Assembly (NCBI GenBank): GCA_965279515.1
Contig: CBDIID010000003.1
Location: forward strand, 1,344,001 to 1,408,000
Reading direction: 5' to 3'
DNA from: Turneriella sp.
GTDB lineage: Bacteria > Spirochaetota > Leptospiria > Turneriellales > Turneriellaceae
DNA: 64,000 bases
Part shown: positions 16,350-49,079 of the stretch, one piece after another
How positions within the stretch are numbered: position 1 is the stretch's first letter
How the letters are laid out: every line of letters begins with the position of its first letter
Made by a program: the position numbers and the translations under genes
Notes under the pieces: generated by a model
The model's input: only the letters and a program-made list of their open reading frames with translations
What the model was told of the DNA's origin: nothing
Database searches by the model: none

Positions 16350-16454
16350 CGGGATATACATGAATTTTTTCCCCGCTACAGGCAACGAAAAAACCGGATT
16401 TCCTGCGGCGTTAAAGTCGGTTTACAGATCGGCTGAATTCGCCAAATCGGGTCT

Positions 16455-19260: not shown

Positions 19261-19331
19261 ATTTATTAACCCCGGCAGACCACTATTCACCGGTAAGCAA
19301 AGGCCCTAATGCATGAGACTGCTTCGCTTTC

Positions 19332-29739: not shown

Positions 29740-30327
29740 ATGTGGAGAAAAATTTCATTCACCGTGACTTTGACAGCCGCGTTATCTATGGTAGTTAACG
29801 CCTGTAGTACAAACGCAAAGATTCTCAAGATGAATAGCACCAGTATCTCCGGGAAAATTGTCCGTTCAGATGCAGAATCTGTCTATATCAAGGGTTATGG
29901 CGCTGAAATACGCATCCCACGAACCGAAATCCTCGATATTTCCCATCCGGGTAAGGGCCTCATGTGGGTTGGGGGCAGTTTTTTCGCCGCCGGAACTGCT
30001 GTTATCATCTTCAGTGCAGCTACCGATGGCAAAACCTATACGAGCTACACTTACAGCAGCAACGGCAGTACGAGTTCATCGTCAAGCAAGACCGACAACA
30101 CGGGGTTCTATGTATCTGGTGGCATCGCGGCCGGACTCGGCCTCGCATTATTCCTCTTCGGCTATAACAATTACAGCACTTCAAAGGAAAACTTAGAATC
30201 AGGCGGTCTGTCGCTCGGATTCCCGGCGGGCATGAACCTCGGATATGAAACCATCACCCGACCCGCTGCAATTCCCGGAGCTGCAACCGAATCTGTACAC
30301 CAGGTAAAGATCACTCTGCGACTTTAG
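29740..30327 (+). CDS. Hypothetical lipoprotein, paralog 2
   Basis: Lipobox VNAC; same length (195 aa); shares ISHPGK.LMWVG, TGFY, NYSTSK.NLE and LGYET..RPAA with paralog 1. Confidence 0.75.
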   Translation: MWRKISFTVTLTAALSMVVNACSTNAKILKMNSTSISGKIVRSDAESVYIKGYGAEIRIPRTEILDISHPGKGLMWVGGSFFAAGTAVIIFSAATDGKTYTSYTYSSNGSTSSSSSKTDNTGFYVSGGIAAGLGLALFLFGYNNYSTSKENLESGGLSLGFPAGMNLGYETITRPAAIPGAATESVHQVKITLRL

Positions 30328-31066
30328 CGGTGCCGCAAACCGGACAATCAGGATTTCTTCCGCGACGGAATGTACGCATGTTTTGCGTCAAGCCGTCATA
30401 GATAAGACTCTTATTGTTCAGAACCTCACCGGCACCGGTAATAATTTTGATCGCCTCCAGCGCCTGCATCGCGCCCATGATGCCAGGCAAAACCCCGATG
30501 ACGCCGGCTTCGGAACAATTCTGGATCGCTTCTGAAGAAGTGGGATACAGACAGCGGTAACAACCCGCATCGAGCCGCGAATCGAAAACAGTGAGAAAGC
30601 CTTCAAAACGGTAGAGGCTCGCAAAGACATTCGGCTTCTGGTACTCCACACAAAAAGCATTGATCGCATAACGCGCGGCAAAGTTATCTGTGCAATCGAG
30701 AACAAGGTCGAATGAGCCGGCGATATCGATCGCCTTCTCCATGGAAAATTTCTCTCCAAAGGTTTCGATCTTAAGATGCGGATTGACCTGGTGCAGTCGC
30801 GGCGCGGCGACGCGCACCTTGGCTTCGCCGATGTCGGCGTCTCCGTAGAGAATCTGGCGGTGGAGATTCGAAAGCTGCACGACATCGTGATCGACAAGCC
30901 CCAACGTTCCGACGCCTGCTCCCGCAAGATAGAGCGCTGCCGGGCAACCGAGGCCGCCCAAGCCGACGATGAGTACACGCGCTTTTTCGAGCTTTTCCTG
31001 CCCCGGCTTGCCGACCTGCGGCAACACGAGCTGGCGTGAATAACGGTTGAGTTCTCCAGGTGTCAT
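30311..31066 (-). CDS. moeB: Molybdopterin synthase adenylyltransferase
   Basis: RYSRQ, GLGGLG, SNLHRQ, DCTDNF, CYRC, CPVC. Confidence 0.93.
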   Translation of the reverse strand: MTPGELNRYSRQLVLPQVGKPGQEKLEKARVLIVGLGGLGCPAALYLAGAGVGTLGLVDHDVVQLSNLHRQILYGDADIGEAKVRVAAPRLHQVNPHLKIETFGEKFSMEKAIDIAGSFDLVLDCTDNFAARYAINAFCVEYQKPNVFASLYRFEGFLTVFDSRLDAGCYRCLYPTSSEAIQNCSEAGVIGVLPGIMGAMQALEAIKIITGAGEVLNNKSLIYDGLTQNMRTFRRGRNPDCPVCGTAKVAE

Positions 31067-31602
31067 GGGGTATTCCGACTGCTGAGCCTATGCGGTTCAA
31101 CCGCCCTAAGCGCAGTCACGGGCATTTCATGGAGCAGATGTTGCAATCCCAACGATCGGTTGCCGAGCTGCTCTTGCATCTCGGTTAGCGCTGCGGCTGT
31201 GTAATAGGTGCAGAGCGGCTCAAAGACATCGCCAATTTTGTACGCGCGAATGTTTCCTTTGGCTTCGATCAGCGGATGGATGTCGGCGGCTGAAACAGAG
31301 GTCATGTCGCAGGCGAGGATCAGGATATCCGATGCGGGAAATTTAACGTGCACTGAAAGCAATCCGCCTAAGGGCCCCCGATTTAAAAAAGTATCGGTAA
31401 CAAATTCAGCGCCACGGATAGCCGTTGCATATGCCGGTAGCTGCTTTTCAGTGATGGAATAGACAACGCACGGGCATACGCTCTTGAGTAAATCAGCTGC
31501 ACGTTCCGCCCAGGTTTTTCCGCCATTACCCAGGAGTCCTTTATCGGAACCCATGCGCGAACTTTCACCGCCGCAGAGCACCACGCCCAGGATCTCAGGC
31601 AT
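31063..31602 (-). CDS. mobA: Molybdenum cofactor guanylyltransferase
   Basis: LCGGESSRMGSDK, GPLGG, ACDM, EPL. Confidence 0.92.
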   Translation of the reverse strand: MPEILGVVLCGGESSRMGSDKGLLGNGGKTWAERAADLLKSVCPCVVYSITEKQLPAYATAIRGAEFVTDTFLNRGPLGGLLSVHVKFPASDILILACDMTSVSAADIHPLIEAKGNIRAYKIGDVFEPLCTYYTAAALTEMQEQLGNRSLGLQHLLHEMPVTALRAVEPHRLSSRNTP

Positions 31603-32074
31603 GGTGGTCTGCAGGAGTATGAACATGCCCGGCGTCGTTGGTTTGCTGCGCATCTCCTTCACAGTTCTCGCCCCAGATGCTCGTGCCGTCGGCGAAAAAT
31701 TCCTTTTTCCAGATCGGCGTCTCGGCCTTCACACGGTTGATGATGTACTGGTTTGCCGCATAGGTTTCAGTGCGGTGCCGGCCGGCAGTCACGACAACCA
31801 CTGCGCTCTCTGAAACACCGAGCATGCCCAAACGGTGTACGCACAAGGCACCGATAAGGGGGAATTCCCCGGCGGCGGCGCGCACGACTTCGAGCATATG
31901 TTTTTCGGCGAGCGGTTTGTGCGCGGTGTATTCGAGCTGCTTCACCTCTTTGCCGTGGCTGAGTCCACGAATCTCACCGCTGAAGATAACACGGGCGCCT
32001 ATGTGGGGATGGTTGAACGAGCGCAAAAGTGTATCGAGAACGATGGGTTCATCCGTAAGCTTTGCAAAAAACAT
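31595..32074 (-). CDS. moaE: Molybdopterin synthase catalytic subunit
   Basis: GARVIFSGEIR, HRLG, HR, PIWKKE. Confidence 0.94.
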   Translation of the reverse strand: MFFAKLTDEPIVLDTLLRSFNHPHIGARVIFSGEIRGLSHGKEVKQLEYTAHKPLAEKHMLEVVRAAAGEFPLIGALCVHRLGMLGVSESAVVVVTAGRHRTETYAANQYIINRVKAETPIWKKEFFADGTSIWGENCEGDAQQTNDAGHVHTPADHHA

Positions 32075-32320
32075 CTAACCCCCGCTCGATGGCGGCAGAA
32101 TATAATATTTGGCTGCATCGGCGAGCGGCTGCTCTGCCGCAAGAAAGGCGTCTTCACCCGCCACCCGCGAAACTTTGAGCCAGTCGGCGGCCAGCGCATT
32201 CTTTTTTTCGAGTATACTGAGCAGTGATCCCGCGGTTGAAGAGACCGGCACTTCCAAAGAAACAGCCTCGCTGAAAAAATCTTTTAACTGCGCATAAAAA
32301 TGCACTTCCACTGTTATCAT
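32075..32320 (-). CDS. moaD: Molybdopterin synthase sulfur carrier
   Basis: 81 aa ending LPPSSGG. Confidence 0.9.
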   Translation of the reverse strand: MITVEVHFYAQLKDFFSEAVSLEVPVSSTAGSLLSILEKKNALAADWLKVSRVAGEDAFLAAEQPLADAAKYYILPPSSGG

Positions 32321-33225
32321 CCGCCGATATCCCGCATCACGAGCGCGCTGCCGGTGAATTTTTCCGCTTGTTTGAGTTCCATGGCTTTTTTCAGCACAGC
32401 TGTCATATCCGTGCCACCGGCAAGAGAAAATCCCCTGGGGTTACTCAGGCAGCCATAGACCACACCATGGCTATCCAGCCGCAACCGGTCACAGTCCGAG
32501 CAGAAAGGCAGCGAGGTATTGCCGATAATGCCGAATCGGTAACTGTCGGAAAGTTCATAATAATGCGCGGTTGCATGCGGTGCACGGGGCAGCGCATGGA
32601 ACTCGAAGGCGCTGCCGATGATCGACAAGATCTCTTCGGCCATGACAACGCGCGCTGAACGCTCGCCGTACAGATGCCCCATTGCCATGAGTTCGAGAAA
32701 GCGTATGGGGATATTTTTTCCTTTCGCCCAACCCAGTAGCGGCAGAATCTGGGAATCATTCATCTCTGCGACGAGTGTGGTATTGATTTTAACTTCGAGT
32801 CCTGCGTCGACTGCCGCGTCGATGCCGGCAAATACCGCAGCGGGATTTCGGCCCCCCATCTGTCGAAAAACGGTTTCATCGAGGGCGTCCAGCGAGATAT
32901 TCACTGACTGAAGCCCTGCAGCGCGGAGCGGCGGCGCAAGTCGCGCCAGGGCAAAGCCATTGGTCGTCAGGGCAATTTTCGGAATGCCCAGATTTTTGAT
33001 GCCCTTAACGAGCCGCACAAGCTCGCGGTAGAGCGTCGGCTCGCCGCCGGTCAGCCTGATTTCATTTAGCGGATTCACTTCGTGAATCGCCCGCACCCAA
33101 TCCAGAAAATTTTGCACACCGGTCTGCGCCTGCAACAGACTAGGCGCGCCGTCGTGTACGCAATACACGCAGGCAAAATTGCACGAGCCGGTCAGGCTGA
33201 GCCTCAGTTTGCGGAAGCGTCTCAT
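32317..33225 (-). CDS. moaA: GTP 3',8-cyclase (radical SAM)
   Basis: CNFACVYC, TGGEP, CSDCDRLRL..GCL, C-terminal IGG. Confidence 0.94.
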   Translation of the reverse strand: MRRFRKLRLSLTGSCNFACVYCVHDGAPSLLQAQTGVQNFLDWVRAIHEVNPLNEIRLTGGEPTLYRELVRLVKGIKNLGIPKIALTTNGFALARLAPPLRAAGLQSVNISLDALDETVFRQMGGRNPAAVFAGIDAAVDAGLEVKINTTLVAEMNDSQILPLLGWAKGKNIPIRFLELMAMGHLYGERSARVVMAEEILSIIGSAFEFHALPRAPHATAHYYELSDSYRFGIIGNTSLPFCSDCDRLRLDSHGVVYGCLSNPRGFSLAGGTDMTAVLKKAMELKQAEKFTGSALVMRDIGG

Positions 33226-34415
33226 CTCCACGGCAGAAACTCCACAATTTCACCGCGCGTAAGTGTCTTTTTGTTCGCAGAATGTACCGCCAAACCGTCT
33301 GACCCCAACCCCGCGCGTATGTCGCCGCTGCCATTGAAAGTGACGGCTTCAAGCTCCGAAGGAGAATCTGCCCGGTTCGCGATGCGCACCGGAAAAAAAT
33401 GCTGCAGCGAATCTTTCTTCTGCCGTTCTTTTGCGAGCGGCAATGCCATGCGCAGCCCAGCAGCCATGCCAAAGCATTGCCTCAGATAGGGCTCGATATA
33501 GACCTTGAAGACGATCTGGCTCGACCACGGATTTCCCGGAATCGCAAAGACGCGCGTCTTGCCCCGTGTACCAAACCACAGTGGTTTTCCCGGCTTCATT
33601 GCCGTCTTATGAAATATTTCCTTAACCTTAAGCTTTGCCAAAATCTCCGGCACATAATCAGAATCACCCGCCGAGACCCCGCCCGTCAGTAAGACAATAT
33701 CGGCCGTGAGCGCCGAGCGCAGCGCCATTGTCAGGCGCATCTTGTCGTCGGCGACGTGCTTTGCGGTAATGTTGATAATGCCATAAGGCGCGAGCATCGC
33801 CTTAAGGGCGTAGGCATTCGAATTGCGTATCTGCTCAGGTTTCGGCTTGCGGTTTAAAGGAATAATTTCATTGCCGGTTGTGAGGATGACCACGCGCGGC
33901 AATTTTTGCACGTCCGGGCGGGCGATACCCAGCGATGCCAAAGCCGTCGCCACACTGTGATCGATAATATTTCCCGCGGTGGCGACTGTTGTTCCGCGTT
34001 TCAGATCTTCACCCATGGGCGAGATATTGTGCCAGCGCGAAACATTCGCCGCGGCAAAGCTGACGAGACCATTTTTGTCTTCACTATCTTCCCTGCGGAT
34101 GACTGCGTCAAACCCTTGCGGCACCGCGGCACCGGTCATAATCTTCACCGCAGAGCCCGCGGGATAAGGCTTTTTTTGAATCTTATCACCCGCAAACACC
34201 GTCCCTTTCACCGCGTACTCCTTTTCCGATGAGAATCCGGCGGAATGAACAGCATAGCCGTCCATCGCCGAGCGGTTAAAGGGCGGATAATCCCGGTCAG
34301 CGCGGACATCTTCCGCGGCGACGCGGCCAAAACTCTTTTCGAGCATAATCTTTTCTGTACCGAAGCTTTGCGCTTCAGCAAGAATGAGTTTCAGAGCCGC
34401 GTCGACGGATATCAA
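33222..34415 (-). CDS. moeA: Molybdopterin molybdotransferase
   Basis: SAMDGYA, IMTGA, TGNE, TGGVSAGD, KPGKP, PGNP. Confidence 0.95.
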   Translation of the reverse strand: MISVDAALKLILAEAQSFGTEKIMLEKSFGRVAAEDVRADRDYPPFNRSAMDGYAVHSAGFSSEKEYAVKGTVFAGDKIQKKPYPAGSAVKIMTGAAVPQGFDAVIRREDSEDKNGLVSFAAANVSRWHNISPMGEDLKRGTTVATAGNIIDHSVATALASLGIARPDVQKLPRVVILTTGNEIIPLNRKPKPEQIRNSNAYALKAMLAPYGIINITAKHVADDKMRLTMALRSALTADIVLLTGGVSAGDSDYVPEILAKLKVKEIFHKTAMKPGKPLWFGTRGKTRVFAIPGNPWSSQIVFKVYIEPYLRQCFGMAAGLRMALPLAKERQKKDSLQHFFPVRIANRADSPSELEAVTFNGSGDIRAGLGSDGLAVHSANKKTLTRGEIVEFLPWR

Positions 34416-35329
34416 TGCCCGCCACCCCGCAGCATCTTGTTCGCATGAAAGAGCGCCGGCAGCACCGCATCCAGGCTTTCTTTTGCGCCAGCCGAACTTC
34501 CCGGCAGGCAGATGACGAGAGTTTGACCGATTGAACCTGCGAGCGAGCGGGAAAACATCGCGAGCGGTGTACGCTCGTTGCCATACTGGCGCATCTTTTC
34601 GCCGATGCCGTCGGCAATTTTTTCGAGCAACGGCGTCACGGCTTCGATGGCCTGGTCGCGGGGCGAGAGGCCCGTGCCGCCGGTGGTGAAGATAAACTGC
34701 ACACCGGCCTCGACCCAGGTCTTGATCTGTGAACGGATTTCGGCTACGTCGTCGGGGATAATTTTGTATTCTGCGATTTTAACTTCGAGCTTTTCGAGCT
34801 CCGCCTGGATGATTTTACCCGACGCGTCTTCGCGCTTGCCCTGCGACGCCGAATCGGAACAGACGAGGATGGCAGCCGTGTGCCCCACGCCCGAATTCTT
34901 TTTGCGGTCAGCCTTACCGCCGGTTTTTTCGAGCAATTTTACGCCGCCGATTTCGAGATCTTTGTCGACGGGTTTTAAAAGATCATAGATCGTCAGCGCC
35001 GCCACAGTCGCCGCCGTGATCGCCTCGATTTCGATACCGGTTTTGTAGATCGTCTTTGCGAACACCTGCACAAGCACCTGACCACGTTCACCTTCTTTCT
35101 TTAGATCGAAGGTGATGTCGAGATGTTCGATCGGTATAGGATGGCAGTGGGGTATGAGCGACGGCGTCGCCTTGGCACCCAAAAGCCCCGCCGCGCGCGC
35201 GACGTCAAAGAGGTTGCCCTTAGGCAGTTTATTCTCGCGGATCAGTTCGATCGTAGCTGCACCGCAGTGCACCGCAGCCATCGCTGTCGCGGTTCTCAGG
35301 CTAAAGTTTTTCGCCGTAATATCGGTCAT
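34412..35329 (-). CDS. moaCB: Bifunctional MoaC / MoaB(MogA)
   Basis: LIPHCHP, TGIEIEA, KTGGK, then SD, TTGGTGLSPRD, LPGS. Confidence 0.93.
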   Translation of the reverse strand: MTDITAKNFSLRTATAMAAVHCGAATIELIRENKLPKGNLFDVARAAGLLGAKATPSLIPHCHPIPIEHLDITFDLKKEGERGQVLVQVFAKTIYKTGIEIEAITAATVAALTIYDLLKPVDKDLEIGGVKLLEKTGGKADRKKNSGVGHTAAILVCSDSASQGKREDASGKIIQAELEKLEVKIAEYKIIPDDVAEIRSQIKTWVEAGVQFIFTTGGTGLSPRDQAIEAVTPLLEKIADGIGEKMRQYGNERTPLAMFSRSLAGSIGQTLVICLPGSSAGAKESLDAVLPALFHANKMLRGGGH

Positions 35330-35374
35330 CTTTACCGCATGCAGATAGATCAAAGTCAGAGGGAAAAGCAATAT

Positions 35375-37639
35375 CTACGAAGCCTTCTCGACCCTTACCG
35401 CTGCTTGCTTGTAGTTGGGCTCGCGCGAGATCGGGTCGAATGCATTCAGCGTCAGATTATTCGCATTCGTCTTAAACCAGTGGAAGGGAATAAAAATCTG
35501 TCCTTCGCCGATGATTTCTGTGATGCGCAGCGTAATCTTCTCCACACTGCCGCGCCGCGAAATGACGCGCACCGCTTCTCCCTGTTTCAGGCCGAGTTTT
35601 TCGGCATCAGCCGGGTTCATCTCTACCCATGCCTCAGGCGAGAGTTTTTGCAGAATCTCAACATTTGCGGTTTTTGTCATGGTATGCCAGTGCTCTACAG
35701 TGCGGCCGGTATTCAGCACAAACGGGTACTCCTCATTGGGTTTCTCGGGCATATCTTTGTTCTCTACGGCAAAAAATTTCGCGCGGCCGTCTTCGTGCTG
35801 GTAAATTCCGTCGGCATAGAGGCGCCGGGGATTCAGCGCAGTGGCCGGATCATCGCTTTCTCTAAACGGCCATTGCACTCCGCCGACTTTATCCAAAAGA
35901 TCATACGTGATGCCGGAATAATCGCATAGCCTGCCTTTCGACACCTGCTTCCACTCATTGAAGGCGTCCCCGACATTGCGCCAGCCGGGATAAATCTTTT
36001 CGACAACGCCCAGCTTGCGCGACACTTCGAGAAAAATATCAAAGTCCGACATCGCCTCGCCAGGGGCATTGATCGCTTTGTTCGCCTTACTCACGCGCCG
36101 TTCAGAATTAGTATATGTACCTTCTTTCTCTCCCCAGACCGAGGCAGGCAGCACGAGGTCAGCGAGCTCTGTCGTTGGAGTCGGATGGAAAGCATCCTGC
36201 ACGACAAAAAAGTCGAGGCGGCCCAATGCATCTTTGAGGAACTCTTGATTCGGAAACGAAACAAGGGGATTCGTGGCAATCACCCACAGCGCTTTGATCT
36301 CGCCCTGCATGATCGCTTCGATAATGTCGGGGTAGGCATAGCCGCGCTTGTCTGGAATTTCGGCGGCATCGACATGCCAGAGCCGCGCCATGTCTTCGCG
36401 GTCAGCGGCGCTTTCATATTTTCTGTAGCCTGGCAATGACCCTGTGCACGAAGTCTCGCGCGTGCCCATGGCATTACACTGCCCGGTAATCGAAAACGAA
36501 GACGCACCGGCTCGGCCGATATTTTGCGTCATGAGGCAGAGGTTATTGATCGCGTTCACTGTCTCGGTGCCCTGATCGGAGTGATTCACCCCCATGCTCC
36601 AGCCGACGAAGAGCGCCTTGGCCTGCGCGATGACCGAAGCGGCTTTCAGAATCTGCGCAAGCGGTAATCCGGTCGTGATAGCGACAGTTTCAGGCGTGTA
36701 CGATTCAAGCGAGCGCACAAAATCCTCAAAACCTGTGGTGTGTGCATCGATATAATCTTTCTTATAGGCGCCGTTCTTAATCAAGAGGTGCATGATGCCG
36801 TTGAGCAGTGCGACATCGCTGCGCGGTTTTAACGGCAGGTATGTGTCAGCCATCTGTGCGGTTTTGGTTGCGCGCGGGTCGGCGACGATCAGGTGTTTGT
36901 TAGGGTTCTCATTCGCCGCAAGCCAGCAGGTCAGAATCGGGTGGTTGTCAGCGATGTTCGCGCCGATGAGAAAAATACAATCCGCGAGCGCCATGTCTTC
37001 GTAGGCACCGGGAGGGCCATCGGAACCGAACGAGCGCTTGTAACCCGAAACGGCGGATGCCATACACAGCGTGGTGTTGCCGTCGTAGTTGCGGGTTTTA
37101 AATCCCAATTGCACCAGCTTGCCGAGCGTGTAAAATTCTTCCGTGACGAGTTGCCCGGTGCTGATGACACCGAGCGCATTATTACCGTATTTTCCCTGTA
37201 CCGCACGGAATTGCTGCACCATGACGTTGAGGGCCTCATTCCATGATACGCGGGAAAAACGGTCGGTTCGGCTCCGCTCACCGACCTTAGATCGGTTGCT
37301 GGGCGGAGCCGAAGCACCGCTCTTCAGCAGCGGGTAGCGCGCACGGTTCTCGGCGTTCAGGAAATGATGCTCGGCCAAACCCTTGGGGCAGAGTTTGCCG
37401 TAGTTCACGGGATGCCCAGGGTCGCCCTTGACGCTCACCGCTTTGCCGTCACGCACGCCAATATACATGCCGCAGCCCACAGAGCAATAACCGCAGGTCG
37501 TGCGCACCCATTTATCGGCGGTCTTCTCTTTCGCGATAACGCCCCACTCTTCAGTGTTGGCATACGAATATTTTTCCGGCGAATGGTCGAGACCGATGAT
37601 GGCTGGCAGCTTGGCAAAGGGCGACTTAATGGTTTGCAC
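35375..37639 (-). CDS. Molybdopterin nitrate reductase catalytic subunit (Nas/NarB-like, no Tat signal)
   Basis: TCGYCSVGC..LCPKG 4Fe-4S motif, NTTLCMASA Mo-Cys, GQCNAMG, TNSERR, HWHTMTKT; context of narK, nirA and Moco genes. Confidence 0.9.
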   Translation of the reverse strand: MQTIKSPFAKLPAIIGLDHSPEKYSYANTEEWGVIAKEKTADKWVRTTCGYCSVGCGMYIGVRDGKAVSVKGDPGHPVNYGKLCPKGLAEHHFLNAENRARYPLLKSGASAPPSNRSKVGERSRTDRFSRVSWNEALNVMVQQFRAVQGKYGNNALGVISTGQLVTEEFYTLGKLVQLGFKTRNYDGNTTLCMASAVSGYKRSFGSDGPPGAYEDMALADCIFLIGANIADNHPILTCWLAANENPNKHLIVADPRATKTAQMADTYLPLKPRSDVALLNGIMHLLIKNGAYKKDYIDAHTTGFEDFVRSLESYTPETVAITTGLPLAQILKAASVIAQAKALFVGWSMGVNHSDQGTETVNAINNLCLMTQNIGRAGASSFSITGQCNAMGTRETSCTGSLPGYRKYESAADREDMARLWHVDAAEIPDKRGYAYPDIIEAIMQGEIKALWVIATNPLVSFPNQEFLKDALGRLDFFVVQDAFHPTPTTELADLVLPASVWGEKEGTYTNSERRVSKANKAINAPGEAMSDFDIFLEVSRKLGVVEKIYPGWRNVGDAFNEWKQVSKGRLCDYSGITYDLLDKVGGVQWPFRESDDPATALNPRRLYADGIYQHEDGRAKFFAVENKDMPEKPNEEYPFVLNTGRTVEHWHTMTKTANVEILQKLSPEAWVEMNPADAEKLGLKQGEAVRVISRRGSVEKITLRITEIIGEGQIFIPFHWFKTNANNLTLNAFDPISREPNYKQAAVRVEKAS
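37261..37318. repeat. REP-like doublet inserted in frame in the nitrate reductase
   Basis: TTCGGCTCCGCTCA ... TGGGCGGAGCCGAA inverted pair (1 mismatch); encodes GASAPPSNRSKVGERSRTD. Confidence 0.8.
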
Positions 37640-39290
37640 GGAAAAATCCTCCTGCCATATTCTTGGGCACTACCGTCACGAAGAACAGGTAGCGGCCGGC
37701 GAATTCCGAAAATAATAACAGTAAACAAGTCAATCCACCTAGAAGGGTGTGCTGGGCAGGCGAAATTGCATTACCCAAACGGGTGAGCACCAGCGGAATC
37801 AGAATACCGCCAGTAAATAACGCGGCGAGCCGCAAAAAGAACAACTTACGGAAATTAACCGTGAGCAAAGTTGCGGTTCCCCGTAGTTCATGGTGTTGCT
37901 CATTCGTCATGTGTAAGAAATGCCGCGCCAAAATGACAACCTGCACCGCCGAAGCGGCGAGCGTCAAAAGATAGAGCGGCAACGACGGCACGCCCGCCAA
38001 ATGCATTAACCAGCCGACGACCGCCGAGCCCAATATGAAACCCGTCGCGAGAAAGCGGTAGGCCGTGACCTTTGTGTGCCACGAAGGCCGCGCCGGAACC
38101 ATGTAGATAAAGGCACTCGAAAACACAGCGGCAATGCCCGAGAGAGCCACGACGCCACCCAACACCAGGCGCTCAAAACCTTTTACGGGTATCAATCCCA
38201 GTGCGTCGGCGACAAAGAGCGAGGCATAGGCGCCGGCAGCGAAAGAAAACCACGAGAACAGCAAAATCTCGCGCGAGAGCCATGAGCTCTTGAGATTTCT
38301 GAGCGCCTTCCACGCCATGATCGGGCGGCCGAGGTGGAGTACCGCCGTACCGAGCGACAATGCTGCCGCCGCAAACATACCCACCGCCATCGGCATGAGC
38401 GCCGTCTTCGGCACAGTAAAGAAATGAAACACCTGTGATAAAAGATCAGTGAGCCACAAAGAAATAAATCCTCCGACCGAAAGTTGCGTCAGGCAAAGAA
38501 AGAAGACCAGCGAGGCATGCGCATGTTCGGGCTGTACGTTGTAATCAGATACCGCGATGCCTTTTTCACGCACGCCCTCGGGTAAGGTGATGCGCGTCGT
38601 TGAAATCGTTTGGTTCGCATCGGGCATACCCGGCGCATCGGCAAGCTTATGGTCGCTTCGCCAAACATCCTTATGAATAATTTCGATTTGGATTGCACCT
38701 TCGGGGCAGGCATCGGCGCAGGCAGGAACCTGCCCCTCAGCTAAGCGGCGCGAGCACATGTCGCACTTGGTGACGACGTGGCGCTCGCTGTTATACTGCG
38801 GCACACCGTAGGGGCAGTTCCAGACGCAGTACTGGCAACCGATGCAGCTATCGGCATTGTGGATTACAAGCCCTGTCTTCTCATCTTTAGTATAGGCCTT
38901 TGTCGGGCACCCGGTCATGCAGCTCGGGTCGAGGCAGTGATTGCAGCCCATCGAAAGATAGAGGCGCTTGGTGTCGGGAAATTTGCCCGCCTCGATTTCA
39001 CCCACACGCCGCCACGTGACATCCGCAGGATTATTGTTTTGTTCGTTGCAAGCGACGACGCAGCACTCGCAGCCAATGCATTTTGTTGCGTCAAAATGGA
39101 AACGGTACTGCTCGCCCTCTTCTAACGGGCGATCGGGAATAAGTTTTGTTTTGATAAAATTCTTCGCAGCATGCGCCGGCGAAGTTTTCGGAATTTCATA
39201 ATCGGGTACGGGCGGCGTGTAGTAGCCTGAAAGGTCAACGCGTTCGGTCAGTGGTAATTTTACCATGTCAAGAAGCGTGTGATCGGCCAT
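37626..39290 (-). CDS. Fused DmsB-like 4x[4Fe-4S] protein and DmsC/YnfH membrane anchor (start may be 39266)
   Basis: CIGCECCVVAC, CNHCLDPSCMTGCP, CIGCQYCVWNCP, CDMC..PACADACP; HLGRP, SWLSRE, multiple TM helices. Confidence 0.92.
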   Translation of the reverse strand: MADHTLLDMVKLPLTERVDLSGYYTPPVPDYEIPKTSPAHAAKNFIKTKLIPDRPLEEGEQYRFHFDATKCIGCECCVVACNEQNNNPADVTWRRVGEIEAGKFPDTKRLYLSMGCNHCLDPSCMTGCPTKAYTKDEKTGLVIHNADSCIGCQYCVWNCPYGVPQYNSERHVVTKCDMCSRRLAEGQVPACADACPEGAIQIEIIHKDVWRSDHKLADAPGMPDANQTISTTRITLPEGVREKGIAVSDYNVQPEHAHASLVFFLCLTQLSVGGFISLWLTDLLSQVFHFFTVPKTALMPMAVGMFAAAALSLGTAVLHLGRPIMAWKALRNLKSSWLSREILLFSWFSFAAGAYASLFVADALGLIPVKGFERLVLGGVVALSGIAAVFSSAFIYMVPARPSWHTKVTAYRFLATGFILGSAVVGWLMHLAGVPSLPLYLLTLAASAVQVVILARHFLHMTNEQHHELRGTATLLTVNFRKLFFLRLAALFTGGILIPLVLTRLGNAISPAQHTLLGGLTCLLLLFSEFAGRYLFFVTVVPKNMAGGFFRANH

Positions 39291-39302
39291 GATCGAAAAA
39301 GA

Positions 39303-39317
39303 GCAAAGCACATGCCA
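39303..39317 (-). promoter_or_regulatory. Sigma54 -24/-12 promoter
   Basis: TGGCAT-GTGCT-TTGC versus consensus TGGCAC-N5-TTGC. Confidence 0.75.
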
Positions 39318-39381
39318 TAGTTTATAAAAAGTTTTGTGCTTAAAATTTATTTCAAAAAAAAATTCATCGCCCGCGCGTTTC

Positions 39382-39397
39382 CTTGACGTAAGTCAAG
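39382..39397. promoter_or_regulatory. Palindromic site between the divergent promoters
   Basis: CTTGAC-GTAA-GTCAAG, FNR/CRP-like spacing. Confidence 0.5.
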
Positions 39398-39411
39398 AAA
39401 ACCTATTATTC

Positions 39412-39426
39412 TGGTTCGCCTTTTGC
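39412..39426 (+). promoter_or_regulatory. Sigma54 -24/-12 promoter
   Basis: TGGTTC-GCCTT-TTGC, with correct GG-N10-GC spacing. Confidence 0.6.
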
Positions 39427-39439
39427 TTGCACAAAGTTT

Positions 39440-40642
39440 ATGAAAACATTCAAAGACTTCTTAAACGCCGGGAGTTTCAGAACTCTCTTCAGCGCATTTT
39501 TATATTTCGATATCAGCTTCATGGTCTGGGTCATGCTCGGCGCACTGGGCGCAGTCATCGCCGAGCAGTTCCATCTCACATCCGCACAAAAGGGACTCAT
39601 GGTTTCGATTCCCCTTCTGGGCGGCACACTGCTGCGCATTCCGATGGGCATCCTCTCGGACCGCTTCGGCTCACGCCGCGTCGCGATGGTAGGTCAAATC
39701 ATCACTCTCATACCGCTCATCTGGGGATGGCTCGCCGGTAACAGCATGACTGAAATTTACGGGCTCGGCATTCTTTTGGGCGTCGCGGGCGCAAGTTTTG
39801 CTGTCGCACTGCCTCTCGCCAGCCGCTGGTATCCGCCACAATACCAGGGCCTTGTCATGGGGATTGCCGGCGCCGGAAACAGCGGCACCGTGATCGCGAC
39901 ATTTTTCGCACCCCGCCTCGCGAAAATGTACGGCTGGCACGCAGTCTTCGGAATCGCGCTGATACCGATGGTGCTGATGGCCATCGCATTTTTCTTTTTG
40001 GCGAAAGATGCACCAGTGCCTTATGTAAAGAAAAAACCCGGAGCCTACTTCGCACCGATCAAATCGCGCGACGCCGTTTTATTCTCGCTCTTTTACAGCA
40101 TCACCTTCGGCGGCTTCGTCGGCCTCGCAAGCTTTCTGCCGATTTTCTTTACCGACCAGTTTAAGCTCGATAAGATCAGCGCCGGCAACTGCACTGCGGC
40201 CTGCGTCATGGCCGGCAGTTTTGTTCGCCCGATCGGCGGTTATCTCGCCGACCGTTTCGGCGGTGTGAATGTACTGACCGGCATCTATGGCGTCATCGCC
40301 TCGCTCGCGCTTGCGATCTCGATCATGCCCGGCCTCGAACTCACACTCGCGCTCTTCATCGCAATGATGCTCGCTCTCGGTACCGGCAACGGTTCTGTCT
40401 TCCAGCTTGTACCGCTGCGCTTTAAGAGCGAAGTGGGAGTGATCACCGGGTTCGTCGGTGCCTTCGGTGGTTTGGGCGGCTTTTTACTCCCCAACCTTCT
40501 GGGTTCGCTGAAGGGCATGACACAGACGTATGCCACGGGCTTTGTCGTGTTCGCGGCGCTCGCTCTCACCGCCGGCATGCTGCTTTTCTGGATCAATGCC
40601 ATCGTCTGGCGCAACGATGAGTGGAAAGAGGTAGAGGTTTAA
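39440..40642 (+). CDS. narK: Nitrate/nitrite MFS transporter (NarK/NasA family)
   Basis: FLYFDISFMVW, GASFAVALPLASRWYP, GAGNSG, GTGNGSVFQLVP. Confidence 0.93.
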   Translation: MKTFKDFLNAGSFRTLFSAFLYFDISFMVWVMLGALGAVIAEQFHLTSAQKGLMVSIPLLGGTLLRIPMGILSDRFGSRRVAMVGQIITLIPLIWGWLAGNSMTEIYGLGILLGVAGASFAVALPLASRWYPPQYQGLVMGIAGAGNSGTVIATFFAPRLAKMYGWHAVFGIALIPMVLMAIAFFFLAKDAPVPYVKKKPGAYFAPIKSRDAVLFSLFYSITFGGFVGLASFLPIFFTDQFKLDKISAGNCTAACVMAGSFVRPIGGYLADRFGGVNVLTGIYGVIASLALAISIMPGLELTLALFIAMMLALGTGNGSVFQLVPLRFKSEVGVITGFVGAFGGLGGFLLPNLLGSLKGMTQTYATGFVVFAALALTAGMLLFWINAIVWRNDEWKEVEV

Positions 40643-40679
40643 CCCCACCCCAGCCCTCCCCTTATAGGGGAGGGAGCAG
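40643..40679 (+). repeat. C/G-rich REP-like palindrome
   Basis: CCCCACCCCAG-CCCTCCCCT-TAT-AGGGGAGGG-AGCAG between narK and nirA. Confidence 0.75.
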
Positions 40680-40687
40680 GAAATACC

Positions 40688-42379
40688 ATGGAATTCAATC
40701 CGGAACAGAAAAAAGTTTTAGACGAAATCTTTGCCGAAGCATACGGCAAAGGCCGCCAGGCCGCGGGTGTAACGGCAACGGCGGCGCCTGCTGCCGAGTC
40801 AGTCTACGGCACTCCGCTAGCAGATCTCTGTAAAGAAGAAATCTGGAAAAAAGAAGAGCATGGCCTCGACATCTGGGAAAAACTCATGCGCCATGCGGGT
40901 GGCAACGAGTTTCCTCAGGGCGGCGATGTTTTCCGTTTTAAATTCCATGGCCTCTTTTACGTGGCACCTGCGCAGAATGCCTTCATGCTGCGCCTGCGGA
41001 TTCCCGGCTGCAAGCTGACTTCGGCGCAAGCCGAGGCCATCGCCGAAATCACCGAGCGCTGGGGTTCGGGCCAGGTCGATGTCACGACGCGCGGCAATTT
41101 CCAGATGCGCGAAATTCAGGCGAAAAATATTATTTCGGTGCTCACGCGCCTCTATGATTCAGGCCTGACTTCCAAAGGTTCGGGTGCCGATAACATCCGC
41201 AACATCACCGCTTCGCCGACCTCGGGGTTTGATCCCAACGAAATGGTCGATGTCATGCCCTATGCGCTCTCGCTGCACCACTACATACTCAACAACCGCG
41301 AGCTCTATGGCCTGCCACGCAAATTCAACGTCTCTTTCGACAATGGCGGCGCGGTCAGCGTTGCTGTCGATACCAATGATATTGGTTTTGTTCCCGTAAA
41401 AATCCACAACGATCCCGAACTCGCCGACGGCGTCTATTTCCGTGTGCTCCTGGCCGGCATCACCGGCCACCAGCATTTCGCGCGCGACGCGGGTATTCTT
41501 GTGAAGCCCGACGATGCGGTGACACTCGCGGTCGCGATGATCAAAGTTTTCATCGCAAACGGCGACCGAACGAACCGAAAAAGAGCCCGCCTCATCTATC
41601 TGCTTGAGAAATGGGGTGTACAAAAGTATCTCGATGAAACTCAAAAGCTGCTTTCGTTTCCGCTGATTTATTCTGCCGCCGAGAAACATCCGGCGAACAC
41701 CTTCAAGGTGCCGCATGGCCATGTCGGCATGTACCGCCAGGCCGAGCAGGGTTTCAACTATGCGGGCATCGGCGTTCCCGTCGGCCGTCTCTCGGCCCGC
41801 CAGCTTAAAGGCATCGCAAATCTCGCGACCAAATTTGGCAAGGGGGATCTAAGGCTGACTGTGTGGCAGAACATCATCGTGCCATATATCGCCGATAAAG
41901 ACGTCGCGAAATTTTCAAAAGAGCTGGGGGCTTTATCACTGAGCTGCCACGGCTCGGCGCTTTCGGGCGGCATCATCGCCTGCACCGGCAACACCGGCTG
42001 TAAATTCGCCGGGGCGAATACCAAAGACACCGCACTCAGCACGATCGACTACCTCGAAAAACGCGTCACACTCGACAAACCTGTGAATATCCACTTCACC
42101 GGCTGCTCGCATAGCTGCGCGCAGCACTATATTGGCGACATTGGCCTGATGGGTGTGCCGATCTCCGGTGGCGAGGGTTTTAACATCGCTTTGGGCGGCG
42201 GCCTCGACGCCACGCAGGCGATCGCCACCGAAGTTTTCTGGAAGGTACCGCGCGAAGCGGTGCCGCAGAAACTCGAAAAGATCCTGACTATCTATAAAGA
42301 GAAGCGCAGCGACGGCGAAACCTTTGCCGCCTTCACACGCCGCCACGACGTCAAAACTTTACAGGAGATTTTTTCATGA
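40688..42379 (+). CDS. nirA: Siroheme/4Fe-4S nitrite reductase (NirA type)
   Basis: MLRLRIPG, TTRGNFQ, GADNIRN, LPRKFN, ACTGNTGC, TGCSHSC. Confidence 0.92.
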   Translation: MEFNPEQKKVLDEIFAEAYGKGRQAAGVTATAAPAAESVYGTPLADLCKEEIWKKEEHGLDIWEKLMRHAGGNEFPQGGDVFRFKFHGLFYVAPAQNAFMLRLRIPGCKLTSAQAEAIAEITERWGSGQVDVTTRGNFQMREIQAKNIISVLTRLYDSGLTSKGSGADNIRNITASPTSGFDPNEMVDVMPYALSLHHYILNNRELYGLPRKFNVSFDNGGAVSVAVDTNDIGFVPVKIHNDPELADGVYFRVLLAGITGHQHFARDAGILVKPDDAVTLAVAMIKVFIANGDRTNRKRARLIYLLEKWGVQKYLDETQKLLSFPLIYSAAEKHPANTFKVPHGHVGMYRQAEQGFNYAGIGVPVGRLSARQLKGIANLATKFGKGDLRLTVWQNIIVPYIADKDVAKFSKELGALSLSCHGSALSGGIIACTGNTGCKFAGANTKDTALSTIDYLEKRVTLDKPVNIHFTGCSHSCAQHYIGDIGLMGVPISGGEGFNIALGGGLDATQAIATEVFWKVPREAVPQKLEKILTIYKEKRSDGETFAAFTRRHDVKTLQEIFS

Positions 42380-44037
42380 TTCCCGTGATCCCTGAATCCG
42401 CGCCGTTTACCGCCGAGCAGCGCACCTGGCTGAATGGATATCTCGCGGGCCTCTTCGCCCGCCATGATTACGGCAATGCCATAACAACCGAGACCTCACA
42501 ACAGCTGATTCCGCTGACCATCCTCTATGGTTCACAGACCGGAACCGCTGAATCACTGGCAAAACAATTGGCAAAGACCGCAGCCACAAAACAGTTCGTT
42601 GCCACCGTGGTCGATATGGCCCAGGTGAATGCAGACATTCTTAGCTGCGCTAAACATCTCTTCATTATTACCAGCACCTATGGCGACGGCGAACCTCCCG
42701 ATAATGCGAAGGATTTCTGGACCGCTCTCAGCGCCGATAATTTTCCGAAATTCCAGGCCACACCATTTTCTATCTTTGCGTTGGGTGACACGAGTTACGA
42801 GAAATTCTGCCAGTTCGGCAAAGACCTTGACCTGCGCCTCGAATCACTCGGCGCTAAACGCATCTATGAACGTATCGACGCCGATACAGACTATGAGCAG
42901 GCCTTCCAAACCTGGTGCGCCGGTGCCCTGGGGGCGTTATCGGGTGTAGCTTCGGAGGGTGGATTCATGTCGCAGGGAGGCGACGCAGAGCCATCGGCTG
43001 ACAGGATGTCATCTTTGCCGATGGCTTCAGATGCTAAACCGGGCGCGGTCACATCTGCAGCCCTTTCTGCTGAAGAAACAGGGGAGCAATACTCGAAAAA
43101 GAAACCTTTTCCTGCAAAACTCATCACCAACCGGCTGCTGAACCTGGCGGGCTCTGAAAAAGAAGTCCGGCATTTTGAAATCCAACTGGATAATTCGATC
43201 ACGTACGAGGCAGGCGATGCGCTGGGCGTGATTCCGCAAAATAACCCCGCACTTGCGGAAAAAGTCATTCGCAAATTCGGCTTCACCCCGGACGACTCCC
43301 TGATGAAGGCGCTGACCGAAACATTTGACCTCAAGAAACTGCCTGAGAGCGCCGCAACGCCGGATGAGCTACTCGCGGGGCTTAAAAAAATTCAGCCACG
43401 GCTCTATTCGATCTCATCGAGCCCGAAAGCCCATAAAAATGAAGTACACCTCACGATCTCGGTGGTACGCTACGAACTCGAGGGAGAAAAGAAAGAAGGC
43501 CTGTGCTCAACCTTTCTCGCCGACCGCGTCGGCGAGGCGGCATTACCGGTCTATGTCCACAAGAACTCCGCCTTTCGCTTGCCCGCAGATTTAACCAAAC
43601 CCGTCATCATGGTCGGTCCAGGCACGGGCATCGCGCCCTTCCGTGCTTTTCTCGAAGAGCGCCGCGCCACTGGCGCGACCGGCAAAAATATGCTCTTTTT
43701 CGGAGAGCAACGCTCGGCGTCGGATTTCTACTACCGCGACGAACTCGAAGCGATGGTCAAGGACGATTTCCTGACATTGCACACAGCCTTCTCGCGCGAC
43801 CAGAAAGAGAAGATCTATGTGCAGCAGCGCATGCTCGAAAATTCCGTGCAGATTTTCGAGCTGCTGGAGCAAGGCGCATATTTCTATGTCTGCGGCGATG
43901 CTTCGCGCATGGCTAAGGATGTGGATTTAGCGCTCCACAAGATAATCGAACGTTCCTCGGGAAGGACGATCGATGAGGCGCAAGAGTACATGCAAAAACT
44001 GCGCAGCGCGAAGCGGTATCTGCGCGACGTGTATTGA
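42376..44037 (+). CDS. CysJ-like diflavin flavoprotein (FMN/FAD/NADPH)
   Basis: YGSQTGTAE, TSTYGDGEPPDN, LGDTSY, PRLYSISS, GPGTGIAPF, YVCGDA, RDVY. Confidence 0.92.
   Translation: MIPVIPESAPFTAEQRTWLNGYLAGLFARHDYGNAITTETSQQLIPLTILYGSQTGTAESLAKQLAKTAATKQFVATVVDMAQVNADILSCAKHLFIITSTYGDGEPPDNAKDFWTALSADNFPKFQATPFSIFALGDTSYEKFCQFGKDLDLRLESLGAKRIYERIDADTDYEQAFQTWCAGALGALSGVASEGGFMSQGGDAEPSADRMSSLPMASDAKPGAVTSAALSAEETGEQYSKKKPFPAKLITNRLLNLAGSEKEVRHFEIQLDNSITYEAGDALGVIPQNNPALAEKVIRKFGFTPDDSLMKALTETFDLKKLPESAATPDELLAGLKKIQPRLYSISSSPKAHKNEVHLTISVVRYELEGEKKEGLCSTFLADRVGEAALPVYVHKNSAFRLPADLTKPVIMVGPGTGIAPFRAFLEERRATGATGKNMLFFGEQRSASDFYYRDELEAMVKDDFLTLHTAFSRDQKEKIYVQQRMLENSVQIFELLEQGAYFYVCGDASRMAKDVDLALHKIIERSSGRTIDEAQEYMQKLRSAKRYLRDVY
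42941..43043. repeat. Branched palindromic insert in the flavodoxin-FNR linker
   Basis: GTCGC-AGGGAG-GCGAC and AGCCATCGGC-[TGAC-AGGAT-GTCA]-TCTTT-GCCGATGGCT, with an imperfect outer stem. Confidence 0.7.
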
Positions 44038-46550: not shown

Positions 46551-47132
46551 ATGAAACTTTATATTCTGCTGGCGCATCCCGATAAAGAGAGCCTCAACGG
46601 CGAAATTGCCGATGCGTATTTCCGTGCCGCGACCGAAAAAGGACATGAGGTCAGGTTTCAGCACCTCGGCGGCATGACGTTTGACCCGGTGCTATGGAAA
46701 GGGTACAAGAAGATCCAACCTCTGGAGCCGGATCTAAAAAAGGCACAGGAAAATATCCTGTGGTGTGAAAAATGGGTCATCATTTATCCCGTGTGGTGGG
46801 GGTCATTGCCGGCATTACTGAAAGGTTTCCTTGACCGCGCCCTGTATTCCGGGTTCGCGTATAAGTACCACGACAAGGATCCGTTTTGGGACAAACTGCT
46901 GAAAGGCAGATCAGCGGAAATCATCGCCACCTGCGATGCCCCAGGCTGGTGGATAGCCTGGCAATACCGTAACAGCGATATAAATACTCTAAAACGGGCC
47001 ACGCTGCTATTTTGCGGAATCTCACCGGTCAAAGTAAAGCGTATCACCCGCGTGAAATATTTGAGTCAGGCCGAAAGACAAAAACGCATAGAAAAAATCT
47101 GCCGGGCGATTCCTTCTGCAAAGTCAGCGTAA
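46551..47132 (+). CDS. NAD(P)H dehydrogenase (quinone), flavodoxin-like fold
   Basis: LAHPDKESL, YPVWWGSLPALLKGFLDR. Confidence 0.92.
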   Translation: MKLYILLAHPDKESLNGEIADAYFRAATEKGHEVRFQHLGGMTFDPVLWKGYKKIQPLEPDLKKAQENILWCEKWVIIYPVWWGSLPALLKGFLDRALYSGFAYKYHDKDPFWDKLLKGRSAEIIATCDAPGWWIAWQYRNSDINTLKRATLLFCGISPVKVKRITRVKYLSQAERQKRIEKICRAIPSAKSA

Positions 47133-47134
47133 CC

Positions 47135-49033: not shown

Positions 49034-49079
49034 GCGCCCAATATACCGCCGATGCGCAAATCTGCGTTGTATGAAGGGG

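Follow-up and report, generated by a model that had tools for sequence, protein, structure and literature searches.

Electron donors of described nitrate and nitrite reductases

Textbook bacterial nitrate assimilation relies on soluble electron donors, be they ferredoxin, flavodoxin or an NAD(P)H flavoprotein. The NarGHI enzyme combines NarG, a subunit of about 1200 amino acids (aa) with an Asp ligand, with NarI, a dihaem cytochrome b whose quinol oxidation takes place on the outer side of the membrane as part of a redox loop. Here we analyse a stretch of 64,000 nucleotides (nt) of a Turneriella sp. genome (assembly GCA_965279515.1, contig CBDIID010000003.1, positions 1,344,001 to 1,408,000; the whole stretch is referred to as the window), in which the gene of a molybdenum enzyme overlaps that of a protein fusing a four-cluster Fe-S domain to a DmsC-type membrane anchor. 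In the reading that we favour, which we consider reasonably probable on its sequence basis, the two would form a menaquinol-fed, cytoplasm-facing, non-electrogenic assimilatory nitrate reductase, working together with a NirA-type nitrite reductase that would receive its electrons from a CysJ-like NADPH diflavin reductase. An earlier reading of this DNA made without database searches (the sequence-only reading) had already proposed that the nitrate reductase faces the cytoplasm, is linked to quinol and serves assimilation; the conserved gene pair, inverted topology, His65/Glu87 equivalents, nitrate-type motif and predicted complex described below lend the proposal computational support.

Several characterised systems come close to one part or another of this arrangement. 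In passages of PMC6303296, the NrfD/PsrC module is presented as a quinone-interacting, cofactor-less partner of a four-cluster protein, and part of PMC6335251 describes SoeABC as a membrane-bound, cytoplasm-facing complex of Mo, Fe-S and NrfD-PsrC-like components that is linked to the quinone pool. Regarding assimilation, passages of PMC4724949 report that NirA of Bradyrhizobium japonicum is genetically required for nitrate and nitrite assimilation, and that the flavoprotein Flp feeds NasC in this bacterium. Nitrite reductases (NiRs) are described as ferredoxin-dependent in a portion of PMC11947256.

The Turneriella locus

The genes that carry the argument are the following:

35375-37639, minus strand: Mo-bis-pyranopterin guanine dinucleotide (bisPGD) enzyme, putative nitrate reductase catalytic subunit, 754 aa (Pfam Molybdop_Fe4S4, Molybdopterin and Molydop_binding)
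37626-39311, minus strand (37626-39290 in the form starting at ATG): Fer4_11 and DmsC fusion protein, predicted electron transfer and anchor subunit (Pfam)
39440-40642, plus strand: NarK-family major facilitator superfamily (MFS) nitrate/nitrite transporter (TIGR00886, 281.1 bits, below its cut-off of 311.7)
40688-42379, plus strand: NirA-type siroheme/[4Fe-4S] assimilatory nitrite reductase (NF007126, 737.8 bits, cut-off 523)
42376-44037, plus strand: CysJ-like diflavin reductase (Pfam Flavodoxin_1, FAD_binding_1 and NAD_binding_1)

The narK, nirA and cysJ-like genes are divergent from the reductase genes and from a set of molybdenum cofactor (Moco) genes that follows the latter on the minus strand. 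As called, the open reading frames (ORFs) of the fusion and catalytic genes overlap by 14 nt. The fusion ORF is open to a GTG at 39311, and its database form, P0003, begins at the ATG at 39290 and comprises 554 aa; this form sets the residue numbering used here. GC content is even over the whole window. All 12 genes named by the sequence-only reading are found where it had placed them by the ORF list, Pfam and NCBIfam, and the fused 4x[4Fe-4S]/DmsC anchor that it had described as overlapping the catalytic gene is borne out, with Fer4_11 and DmsC in one ORF that overlaps its neighbour as stated. It had also remarked on the lack of ferredoxin, cysG and modABC genes in the window. The 46 window ORFs scanned include none of these, so far in agreement with that remark, and elsewhere the genome holds cobA plus cysG-N, modA and six Fer2 domains, none of the six inside the window.

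The gene pair in other genomes and its predicted complex

Relatives of the fusion protein number in the thousands in the database; the 120 listed measure 385-611 aa, and all of these have DmsC and most also Fer4 domains. In a collection with one genome per species, at least 565 relatives are found, and the wiring is thus widespread, not rare. By record title, the best 80 loci of this collection belong mostly to Acidobacteriota (Bryobacterales, Terriglobia and Acidobacteriaceae, including the cultured Tunturiibacter empetritectus), and further to Omnitrophota, Planctomycetia, Spirochaetia/Turneriella and some other metagenome-assembled genomes (MAGs). Where at least 1500 nt are available downstream of the fusion gene, the next gene is a catalytic homologue with at least 50% identity in 67 of 68 loci (median gap 38 nt), and in the 68th (L079) the gene that follows is a 45% catalytic homologue. 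Since 67 of 68 loci keep this direct adjacency, the pairing of the two genes is not due to chance.

A NarK-like gene lies in the flanks of 61 of the 80 loci and a cysJ-like gene in 13. In ten Acidobacteriaceae-type loci, four genes share a strand and run from nirA through the cysJ-like gene and the fusion gene to narK, the catalytic gene being detected between the last two in nine of them. In the Bryobacterales locus that was annotated (L016), nirB (817 aa) comes next after the catalytic gene and precedes an MFS transporter. The survey of this neighbourhood across genomes that the sequence-only reading had put forward hence finds the pair conserved and nearly always beside nitrate transporter and nitrite reductase genes. 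As a separate observation, a sulfite-oxidase-family Mo enzyme (Oxidored_molyb plus Mo-co_dimer) is encoded directly beyond the nitrate transporter of L016, at 18508-19839.

Structure prediction of the catalytic subunit with fusion residues 48-256 gave a complex score of 0.94, against 0.00 for the best of three controls. Of 157 solved complexes 116 come up to that mark, as do 2 of 215 mismatched pairs; these counts apply only approximately, own alignments having been used. At least 83% of the contacts are common to the runs, and the predicted local distance difference test score (pLDDT) of the partner is at least 86. The predicted interface sets the FS0 region (82-89) and the N-terminal residues 17-39 of the catalytic subunit against the first cluster motif of the Fe-S domain. 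As PsrAB, FdnGH and ArrAB have already been solved, such a pass demonstrates likeness to these complexes and is not proof of binding. Taking the sequence data and the model together, it is very probable, close to the top of our scale, that the two proteins would form a complex and that this complex would be oriented inward.

The fusion protein: Fe-S domain, predicted membrane topology and proposed quinol site

From its N-terminus onwards, the fusion protein comprises an extension of about 65 aa, a DmsB-like domain and a DmsC-like domain with eight transmembrane (TM) helices. Sixteen Cys, as for four [4Fe-4S] clusters, are invariant in 117 fusion-protein sequences. The DmsB model TIGR02951 scores 159.5 bits, below its cut-off of 214.1, while DmsC (PF04976) scores 66.2 bits with a cut-off of 22.3, and no other DmsC protein is encoded in the genome. 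An AlphaFold (AF2) model built from the 117 sequences reached a pLDDT of 79.1 and a predicted template-modelling score of 0.78, with the eight TM helices placed after residue 258; with only 12 sequences as input, the Fe-S domain had been modelled poorly (pLDDT 62.9). In Foldseek comparisons the N-terminal domain resembles ArrB, FdnH and PsrB, and the membrane domain ActC and PsrC. Escherichia coli DmsC is matched to the membrane domain by hhalign at 98.5% (E 1.5e-15) over 268 columns.

The orientation of the protein can be read from its loops and its N-terminus. None of the 117 fusion proteins has a twin-arginine (RR) motif before the first cluster motif, and the N-terminal regions of these proteins and of 31 catalytic subunits hold no hydrophobic stretch. 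Lys plus Arg average 13.0 over the loops on the side of the Fe-S domain, compared with 1.27 for those across the membrane, and the inner count is the higher one in every one of the 117 sequences. The TM topology analysis of the anchor, a check that the sequence-only reading had named, therefore yields eight helices and, by the positive-inside count, a cytoplasmic Fe-S domain in 117/117.

His65 and Glu87 of E. coli DmsC, which we take to be needed for menaquinol binding and oxidation, correspond to invariant columns; their equivalents in P0003, His319 and Glu341, are placed where helices 2 and 3 end on the side of the Fe-S domain, here the cytoplasmic one. The genome has two MqnA/MqnD-family genes and no match to menA, a combination that fits menaquinone made by the futalosine route. 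From these sequence features, quinol is probably the electron donor.

Should the DmsC-like domain be a mere membrane tether, the Fe-S domain would instead receive electrons from ferredoxin, NirB, the CysJ-like protein or another soluble donor. Such an arrangement would agree with the constant presence of a diflavin reductase or NirB nearby, and with the Nas enzymes treated in passages of PMC4724949, all of which use soluble donors. It is improbable in our estimation, as a passive tether would have no need of the invariant residues, the His65/Glu87 equivalents among them, that are kept at cytoplasmic helix ends in 117 sequences from several phyla; in addition, the cysJ-like gene occurs in only 13 of the 80 loci.

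Compared with the DmsABC, PsrABC and ArrAB enzymes, the Turneriella pair shares a Mo-bisPGD subunit carrying FS0, an Fe-S protein with four clusters and a haem-less anchor of the DmsC/PsrC type with eight TM helices and a predicted quinol site, the His65/Glu87 pair being kept. Unlike in DmsABC and PsrABC, the B and C modules form one polypeptide here, and no Tat (twin-arginine translocation) signal is found on either partner (RR in 0/31 catalytic and 0/117 fusion sequences), the complex being turned to the cytoplasm by prediction. Unlike that of DmsABC, moreover, the catalytic subunit is of the Nas/Nap type and not of the DmsA type (TIGR02166, 162.8 bits). The closest known precedent for the cytoplasm-facing membrane topology is SoeABC, likened here by its described topology only. 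SoeABC differs in that it oxidises sulfite and reduces quinone, consists of three separate subunits and is found in a sulfur-oxidation gene context.

The catalytic subunit

The catalytic subunit is the only PF00384 protein of a genome that is 99.99% complete. Its closest solved relative is the monomeric NapA of Desulfovibrio desulfuricans (2NAP), matched over the full length with 485.9 bits. The FS0 cysteines (Cys49/52/56/84) are invariant in 31 sequences, and Cys192, within the motif TTLCMASAV, is the putative Mo ligand, the motif being aligned with the region of the Mo ligand Cys140 in 2NAP. We take the Cys-Met of this motif (LCMASAV) to be a mark of nitrate reductases; formate dehydrogenase-like representatives carry Cys-His at the same position. 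An RR motif before the first cluster motif is absent from the Turneriella subunit and from all 31 orthologues, in line with the Tat-less catalytic subunit of the sequence-only reading. NCBIfam models for haloarchaeal NasA (NasA_Halo, 505.1 bits, cut-off 1000) and NapA (432-449 bits, best 449.2, cut-offs 904-931) score well below their cut-offs.

Among 1.84 billion cluster representatives, a single one reaches 63% identity (1036.8 bits) and the next full-length matches do not exceed 45%. A FastTree phylogeny was computed on 146 rows and rooted at the midpoint. It comprises the Turneriella subunit, 16 locus-derived catalytic ORFs (sought in 19 loci, three of which fell outside the ORF filter) and 129 of 150 representatives, 21 having been left out for measuring less than 640 aa or offering fewer than 600 aligned residues. 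All fusion-linked catalytic subunits and the 63% representative form one clade with support 100, whose sister (support 97) is composed of six short unnamed Cys-Met proteins, and Tat-bearing monomeric NapA-like proteins stand near it. NCBIfam labels single rows of the tree as NasC (P0225), haloarchaeal NasA (P0236) and formate dehydrogenase alpha (P0173 and P0186). The sequence-only reading would have been overturned by a grouping with a non-nitrate Mo enzyme clade. Such a grouping is not seen, because the fusion-linked subunits form a clade of their own, separate from the formate dehydrogenase-like one. By sequence the subunit is of the Nas/Nap type, yet a member of no named Nas family.

A substrate other than nitrate could be considered, for instance formate, chlorate or selenate, or sulfite if the enzyme oxidised it in the manner of SoeA. 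The clade has no characterised member, and the top NCBIfam match of the subunit, below cut-off, is to a formate dehydrogenase alpha model. All the same, the subunit has Cys-Met and not Cys/Sec-His, the formate dehydrogenase-like representatives carry Cys-His and belong to another clade, and nitrate transporter and nitrite reductase genes are neighbours in most loci. We regard these other substrates as very improbable, and nitrate, on motif and gene context, as very likely the substrate.

Like the soluble NasA, NasC, NarB and haloarchaeal NasA, the subunit would be a cytoplasmic, Cys-ligated Mo-bis-molybdopterin guanine dinucleotide (bisMGD) enzyme in the size range of roughly 700-750 aa, and its gene has those of nitrate transporters and siroheme nitrite reductases for neighbours. 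Those enzymes use ferredoxin, flavodoxin or an NAD(P)H flavoprotein, whereas gene context suggests that the partner of the Turneriella subunit would be a membrane Fe-S/quinol module; the subunit also scores below the NasC and NasA equivalog cut-offs and falls in a separate clade that is nearer to the Tat-bearing monomeric NapA-like proteins. From NapA itself it is set apart by the missing Tat signal and by scores below the NapA cut-offs. With NarGHI the proposed enzyme would have in common that it is quinol-driven and has a cytoplasmic active site, whereas it combines a 754-aa Cys-Met subunit with a haem-less DmsC-type anchor, and the narH model reaches only 58.1 bits against a cut-off of 524.

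NirA and the CysJ-like diflavin reductase

The nitrite reductase carries NIR_SIR and NIR_SIR_ferr repeats (Pfam), and the PDB entries that match it best are ferredoxin-nitrite reductases of plants (224.2 and 210.5 bits), against 157.2 bits for Mycobacterium tuberculosis SirA and at most 98 bits for sulfite reductases. Its PRKFN motif aligns with PRKWN of the tobacco nitrite reductase and is found in 11 of 11 NirA orthologues that adjoin cysJ-like genes, while the CysI-type paralogue of the genome has PRKFK. We presume that Lys-x-Asn marks a nitrite-type and Lys-x-Lys a sulfite-type active site. The stop of nirA and the start of the cysJ-like gene overlap by 4 nt (ATGA). Three genus relatives possess nirA, and in all three a cysJ-like gene comes after it, as is also the case in 11 of 11 loci whose NirA is at least 40% identical.

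The adjacency extends to a Methylocystis plasmid, where the genes labelled 'NirA family protein' and 'sulfite reductase subunit alpha' share 4 nt within a classical ANTAR-nrtABC-NasA cluster, and to a Sulfitobacter plasmid; the PGAP labels of these alphaproteobacterial plasmid pairs place a 'NirA family protein' beside either a 'sulfite reductase subunit alpha' or a 'flavodoxin domain-containing protein'. Because it occurs on these two plasmids as well, the nirA-cysJ-like pair represents a recurrent unit that is not peculiar to this island. In this respect the sequence-only reading, which had presented the NirA/CysJ-like pair as part of an unusual wiring, needs correction, whereas its NADPH-fed NirA gains support from the nitrite-type motif and the conserved overlap.

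The CysJ-like protein is the only FAD_binding_1 (PF00667) protein in the genome. It covers only positions 3-73 and 159-222 of this 222-position model, and it remains below the CysJ equivalogs TIGR01931 (531.7 vs 668.15 bits) and NF004859 (428 vs 432 bits). A sulfate assimilation operon, cysH-cysD-cysN-cobA-cysG(N)-cysI, is located at about 537800-543700 of the same contig (G000:C3; L089 3826-9744) and contains no cysJ, while its cobA and cysG(N) provide the siroheme genes that the window lacks; its cysI lies about 840 kb from the nirA/cysJ-like pair, and the CysI that it encodes passes NF010029, the model of the 'NADPH-dependent' hemoprotein, with 655.1 bits (cut-off 457).

These observations leave room for a rival to the second half of our reading, in which the CysJ-like protein would be the flavoprotein of the distant CysI and NirA would be fed by ferredoxin as in plants and cyanobacteria. 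The uniqueness of the PF00667 protein, a cysI operon that lacks cysJ and encodes a CysI above the NF010029 cut-off, and the ferredoxin dependence of NiRs as described in the portion of PMC11947256 already mentioned all speak in its favour. They are countered by the nirA adjacency and overlap, kept across phyla (3/3 genus relatives, 11/11 loci and the Methylocystis plasmid), and by the score below the CysJ equivalog TIGR01931. Further, the CysJ-like protein may serve both hemoproteins, NirA and CysI. We consider this rival unlikely, albeit the most serious of those discussed, and the delivery of electrons from NADPH to NirA through the CysJ-like protein to be fairly probable from the conserved gene arrangement.

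As in CysJI, described in part of PMC11947256, a siroheme/[4Fe-4S] hemoprotein gene adjoins the gene of an FMN/FAD/NADPH diflavin reductase. Unlike in CysJI, the hemoprotein belongs with the nitrite-type enzymes, as a NirA family member with PRKFN whose closest matches are nitrite reductases of plants, and the reductase stays below the CysJ cut-off. The locus resembles the NasC-Flp/NirA system of B. japonicum in placing NirA in assimilation and a dedicated flavoprotein in the nitrate-assimilation set, and differs from it in that the flavoprotein gene is paired with nirA and a membrane protein is the predicted partner of the nitrate reductase.

Proposed electron route

Starting from the gene content, the conserved pairing, the topology, the cofactor and quinol-site residues and the assimilatory gene context, all of which are read from sequence, we infer the quinol donor, the electroneutrality, the NADPH-to-NirA route and the physiological role. 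Menaquinol would be oxidised at a DmsC-type site (His319/Glu341) on the cytoplasmic face of the eight-helix domain. Its electrons would pass through the four [4Fe-4S] clusters of the DmsB-like domain to FS0 and on to the Mo-bisMGD of the Nas/Nap-type subunit, which would reduce the nitrate imported by NarK. As quinol oxidation and nitrate reduction would both take place on the cytoplasmic side, the nitrate step would be electroneutral and not a Nar-type redox loop. Nitrite would then be converted into ammonium by NirA, the six electrons moving from NADPH over FAD/FMN to the NirA siroheme through the translationally coupled CysJ-like protein, in an architecture like that of CysJI.

Several points weigh against this reading. 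In the open-access literature we found no biochemical or genetic datum for any member of the family, and the reading presupposes the roles assigned here to His65/Glu87 and to the Cys-Met and K-x-N motifs. The catalytic subunit scores below every NCBIfam equivalog cut-off, the formate dehydrogenase alpha model coming first (568.6 bits, cut-off 666.25) and NasC reaching 526.5 bits (cut-off 1100); in the tree, it lies outside the clade of NasA proteins with C-terminal extensions (NasA-long), which is found across the midpoint root. The CysI of the genome lacks a CysJ of its own, so that the CysJ-like protein might serve CysI. In passages of PMC4724949, NirA of B. japonicum is taken as ferredoxin-dependent and NirB, the neighbour in Bryobacterales, can feed Nas via ferredoxin in other bacteria. 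The promoter element described next would also suit another physiological role.

A perfect palindrome is found in the divergent promoter region:

39383-39396, no strand assigned: perfect palindrome TTGACGTAAGTCAA, 43 nt upstream of the narK ATG

A related MAG (L001, about 1482-1495) retains the half-sites at the same distance from narK, while the rest of the spacer has diverged there. The palindrome presumably resembles FNR/Dnr-type boxes, and by its sequence it may be a candidate operator of the CRP/FNR family. Genome-wide, the FNR-like pattern is found 15 times against 14.4 expected. As this is no enrichment, no regulon can be derived from it, and the palindrome neither supports nor excludes oxygen control.

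If the enzyme were instead dissimilatory or redox-balancing, it would act as a haem-less Nar-like quinol sink at low oxygen, and NirA or NirB would mainly detoxify nitrite. Quinol-linked Mo enzymes are usually respiratory; the FNR/Dnr-like palindrome, by its presumed resemblance and its conservation in a relative, would suit such a role, and NarGHI of M. tuberculosis, which is reported to serve assimilation, illustrates that the two roles can blur. Opposed to this are the ties of the pair to narK and to ammonium-yielding siroheme nitrite reductases, the position of quinol site and active site on one face, by which the enzyme itself would conserve no energy, the absence of any other PF00384 enzyme from the genome and the lack of genome-wide enrichment of the palindrome motif. 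A dissimilatory or redox-balancing function is, in our judgement, doubtful, and an assimilatory role, as the gene context indicates, likely.

A variable segment beside a core Moco cluster

The remaining genes of the island belong to the Moco biosynthesis cluster moeB-(mobA)-moaE-moaD-moaA-moeA-moaC/moaB (30311-35371, minus strand), assigned by Pfam to cofactor supply. Its members are, all on the minus strand and, except for mobA (Pfam), identified by the ORF list with Pfam and NCBIfam:

30311-31066, minus strand: ThiF/MoeB (moeB)
31063-31662, minus strand: MobA-like protein (mobA), guanylyl transfer for bis-MGD
31595-32074, minus strand: MoaE
32075-32320, minus strand: MoaD
32317-33231, minus strand: MoaA
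33222-34415, minus strand: MoeA
34412-35371, minus strand: MoaC fused to MoaB/Mog

The variable segment of the region extends from the catalytic gene (35375) to an AraC-family gene (about 49900), between moaC/B and an ACT-domain gene. It is absent from two complete genomes of the genus, G186 (L105) and G177 (L106), in neither of which a PF00384 enzyme was found. Both have the order hpcH-moeB-moaE-moaD-moaA-moeA-moaC/B-ACT-orf248-dapD, as in the window. The hpcH-like gene, which like the Moco cluster counts as core DNA, is 96-99% identical in four of five relatives searched and 91% in the fifth, and MoaE is present in 9 of 14 genus genomes. By contrast, only G000, G188, G178, G181 and G179 of these 14 have mobA; at its site G186 has an adenylate cyclase gene, and mobA is absent there in G177 too. 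G188 and G178 possess the reductase, and G181 has other PF00384 enzymes. Within the genus mobA is the one Moco gene that tracks bis-PGD enzymes. The idea that the Moco genes are dedicated to, or travel with, the reductase was rejected, the cluster being in the same place in two enzyme-less genomes with only mobA co-varying. Counted by the sequence-only reading as part of the island, these genes are indeed present; with the exception of mobA, they are core genus DNA outside the variable segment.

In G181 (G181:C3 1985-7830), two other PF00384 matches in frames of about 1200 aa lie together with mobA and no fusion protein, which means that the bis-PGD enzymes differ among species of the genus. 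Among 189 other genomes of the class, a near-full-length homologue of the fusion protein was found in two of the same genus (78-79% identity) and in a distant one (38%).

The variable segment also contains orf736 (44255-46465, plus strand), encoding a soluble protein of 736 aa with no Pfam or NCBIfam match, and, at 46551-49844, a Flavodoxin_2 NAD(P)H oxidoreductase (weak PRK09739 match), a long-chain acyl-CoA ligase-like gene and an AraC-family regulator. As members of the module these were rejected: orf736, the oxidoreductase, AraC and the acyl-CoA ligase occur near the pair in 0/80, 0/80, 0/80 and 1/80 loci, respectively. The location of an NAD(P)H:quinone reductase beside a putatively quinol-fed enzyme is suggestive, though the association is not kept elsewhere.

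Away from these genes, the window encodes an 800-aa protein in which the acyl-CoA dehydrogenase domains occur as two complete sets, an apparent tandem fusion (1733-4135, minus strand). A glycogen cluster at 7226-16385 comprises a glucan phosphorylase, a 1108-aa alpha-amylase/4-alpha-glucanotransferase fusion, a CBM48 debranching-type enzyme and a glycogen synthase. At 17792-18952 (plus strand), a ferric-reductase-like TM domain is fused to FAD and NAD binding domains in a NOX/FRE-type architecture.

Implications for nitrate assimilation

In a search of open-access full text, with subscription journals outside its scope, we found no description of a DmsC- or NrfD-anchored assimilatory nitrate reductase and no study of a NirA-diflavin enzyme. 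On balance we lean, by a narrow measure, towards a third class of electron supply for nitrate assimilation in many Acidobacteriota, Omnitrophota and Planctomycetota and in some Leptospiraceae-like spirochaetes, in which two electrons would come from menaquinol via an inverted, fused DmsBC and, in this lineage, six from NADPH via a NirA-diflavin holoenzyme. The NirA-diflavin pairing suggests an NADPH-dependent siroheme nitrite reductase with the build of a sulfite reductase, and the fusion protein would offer a natural example of a DMSO-reductase-type module that has been inverted and fused, useful for the study of modular enzyme re-wiring.

If this is true, there would be a direct tie between nitrate assimilation and the respiratory chain: an inward-facing Nas fed by quinol would pay for nitrate reduction with lower-energy electrons and be linked to the redox state of that chain. 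The reading of nitrogen-cycle genes in metagenomes would be affected as well, given at least 565 loci that include those of abundant soil Acidobacteriota and groundwater Omnitrophota, and surveys that take any nasA-like gene as ferredoxin- or NADH-dependent would be mechanistically wrong for these groups.

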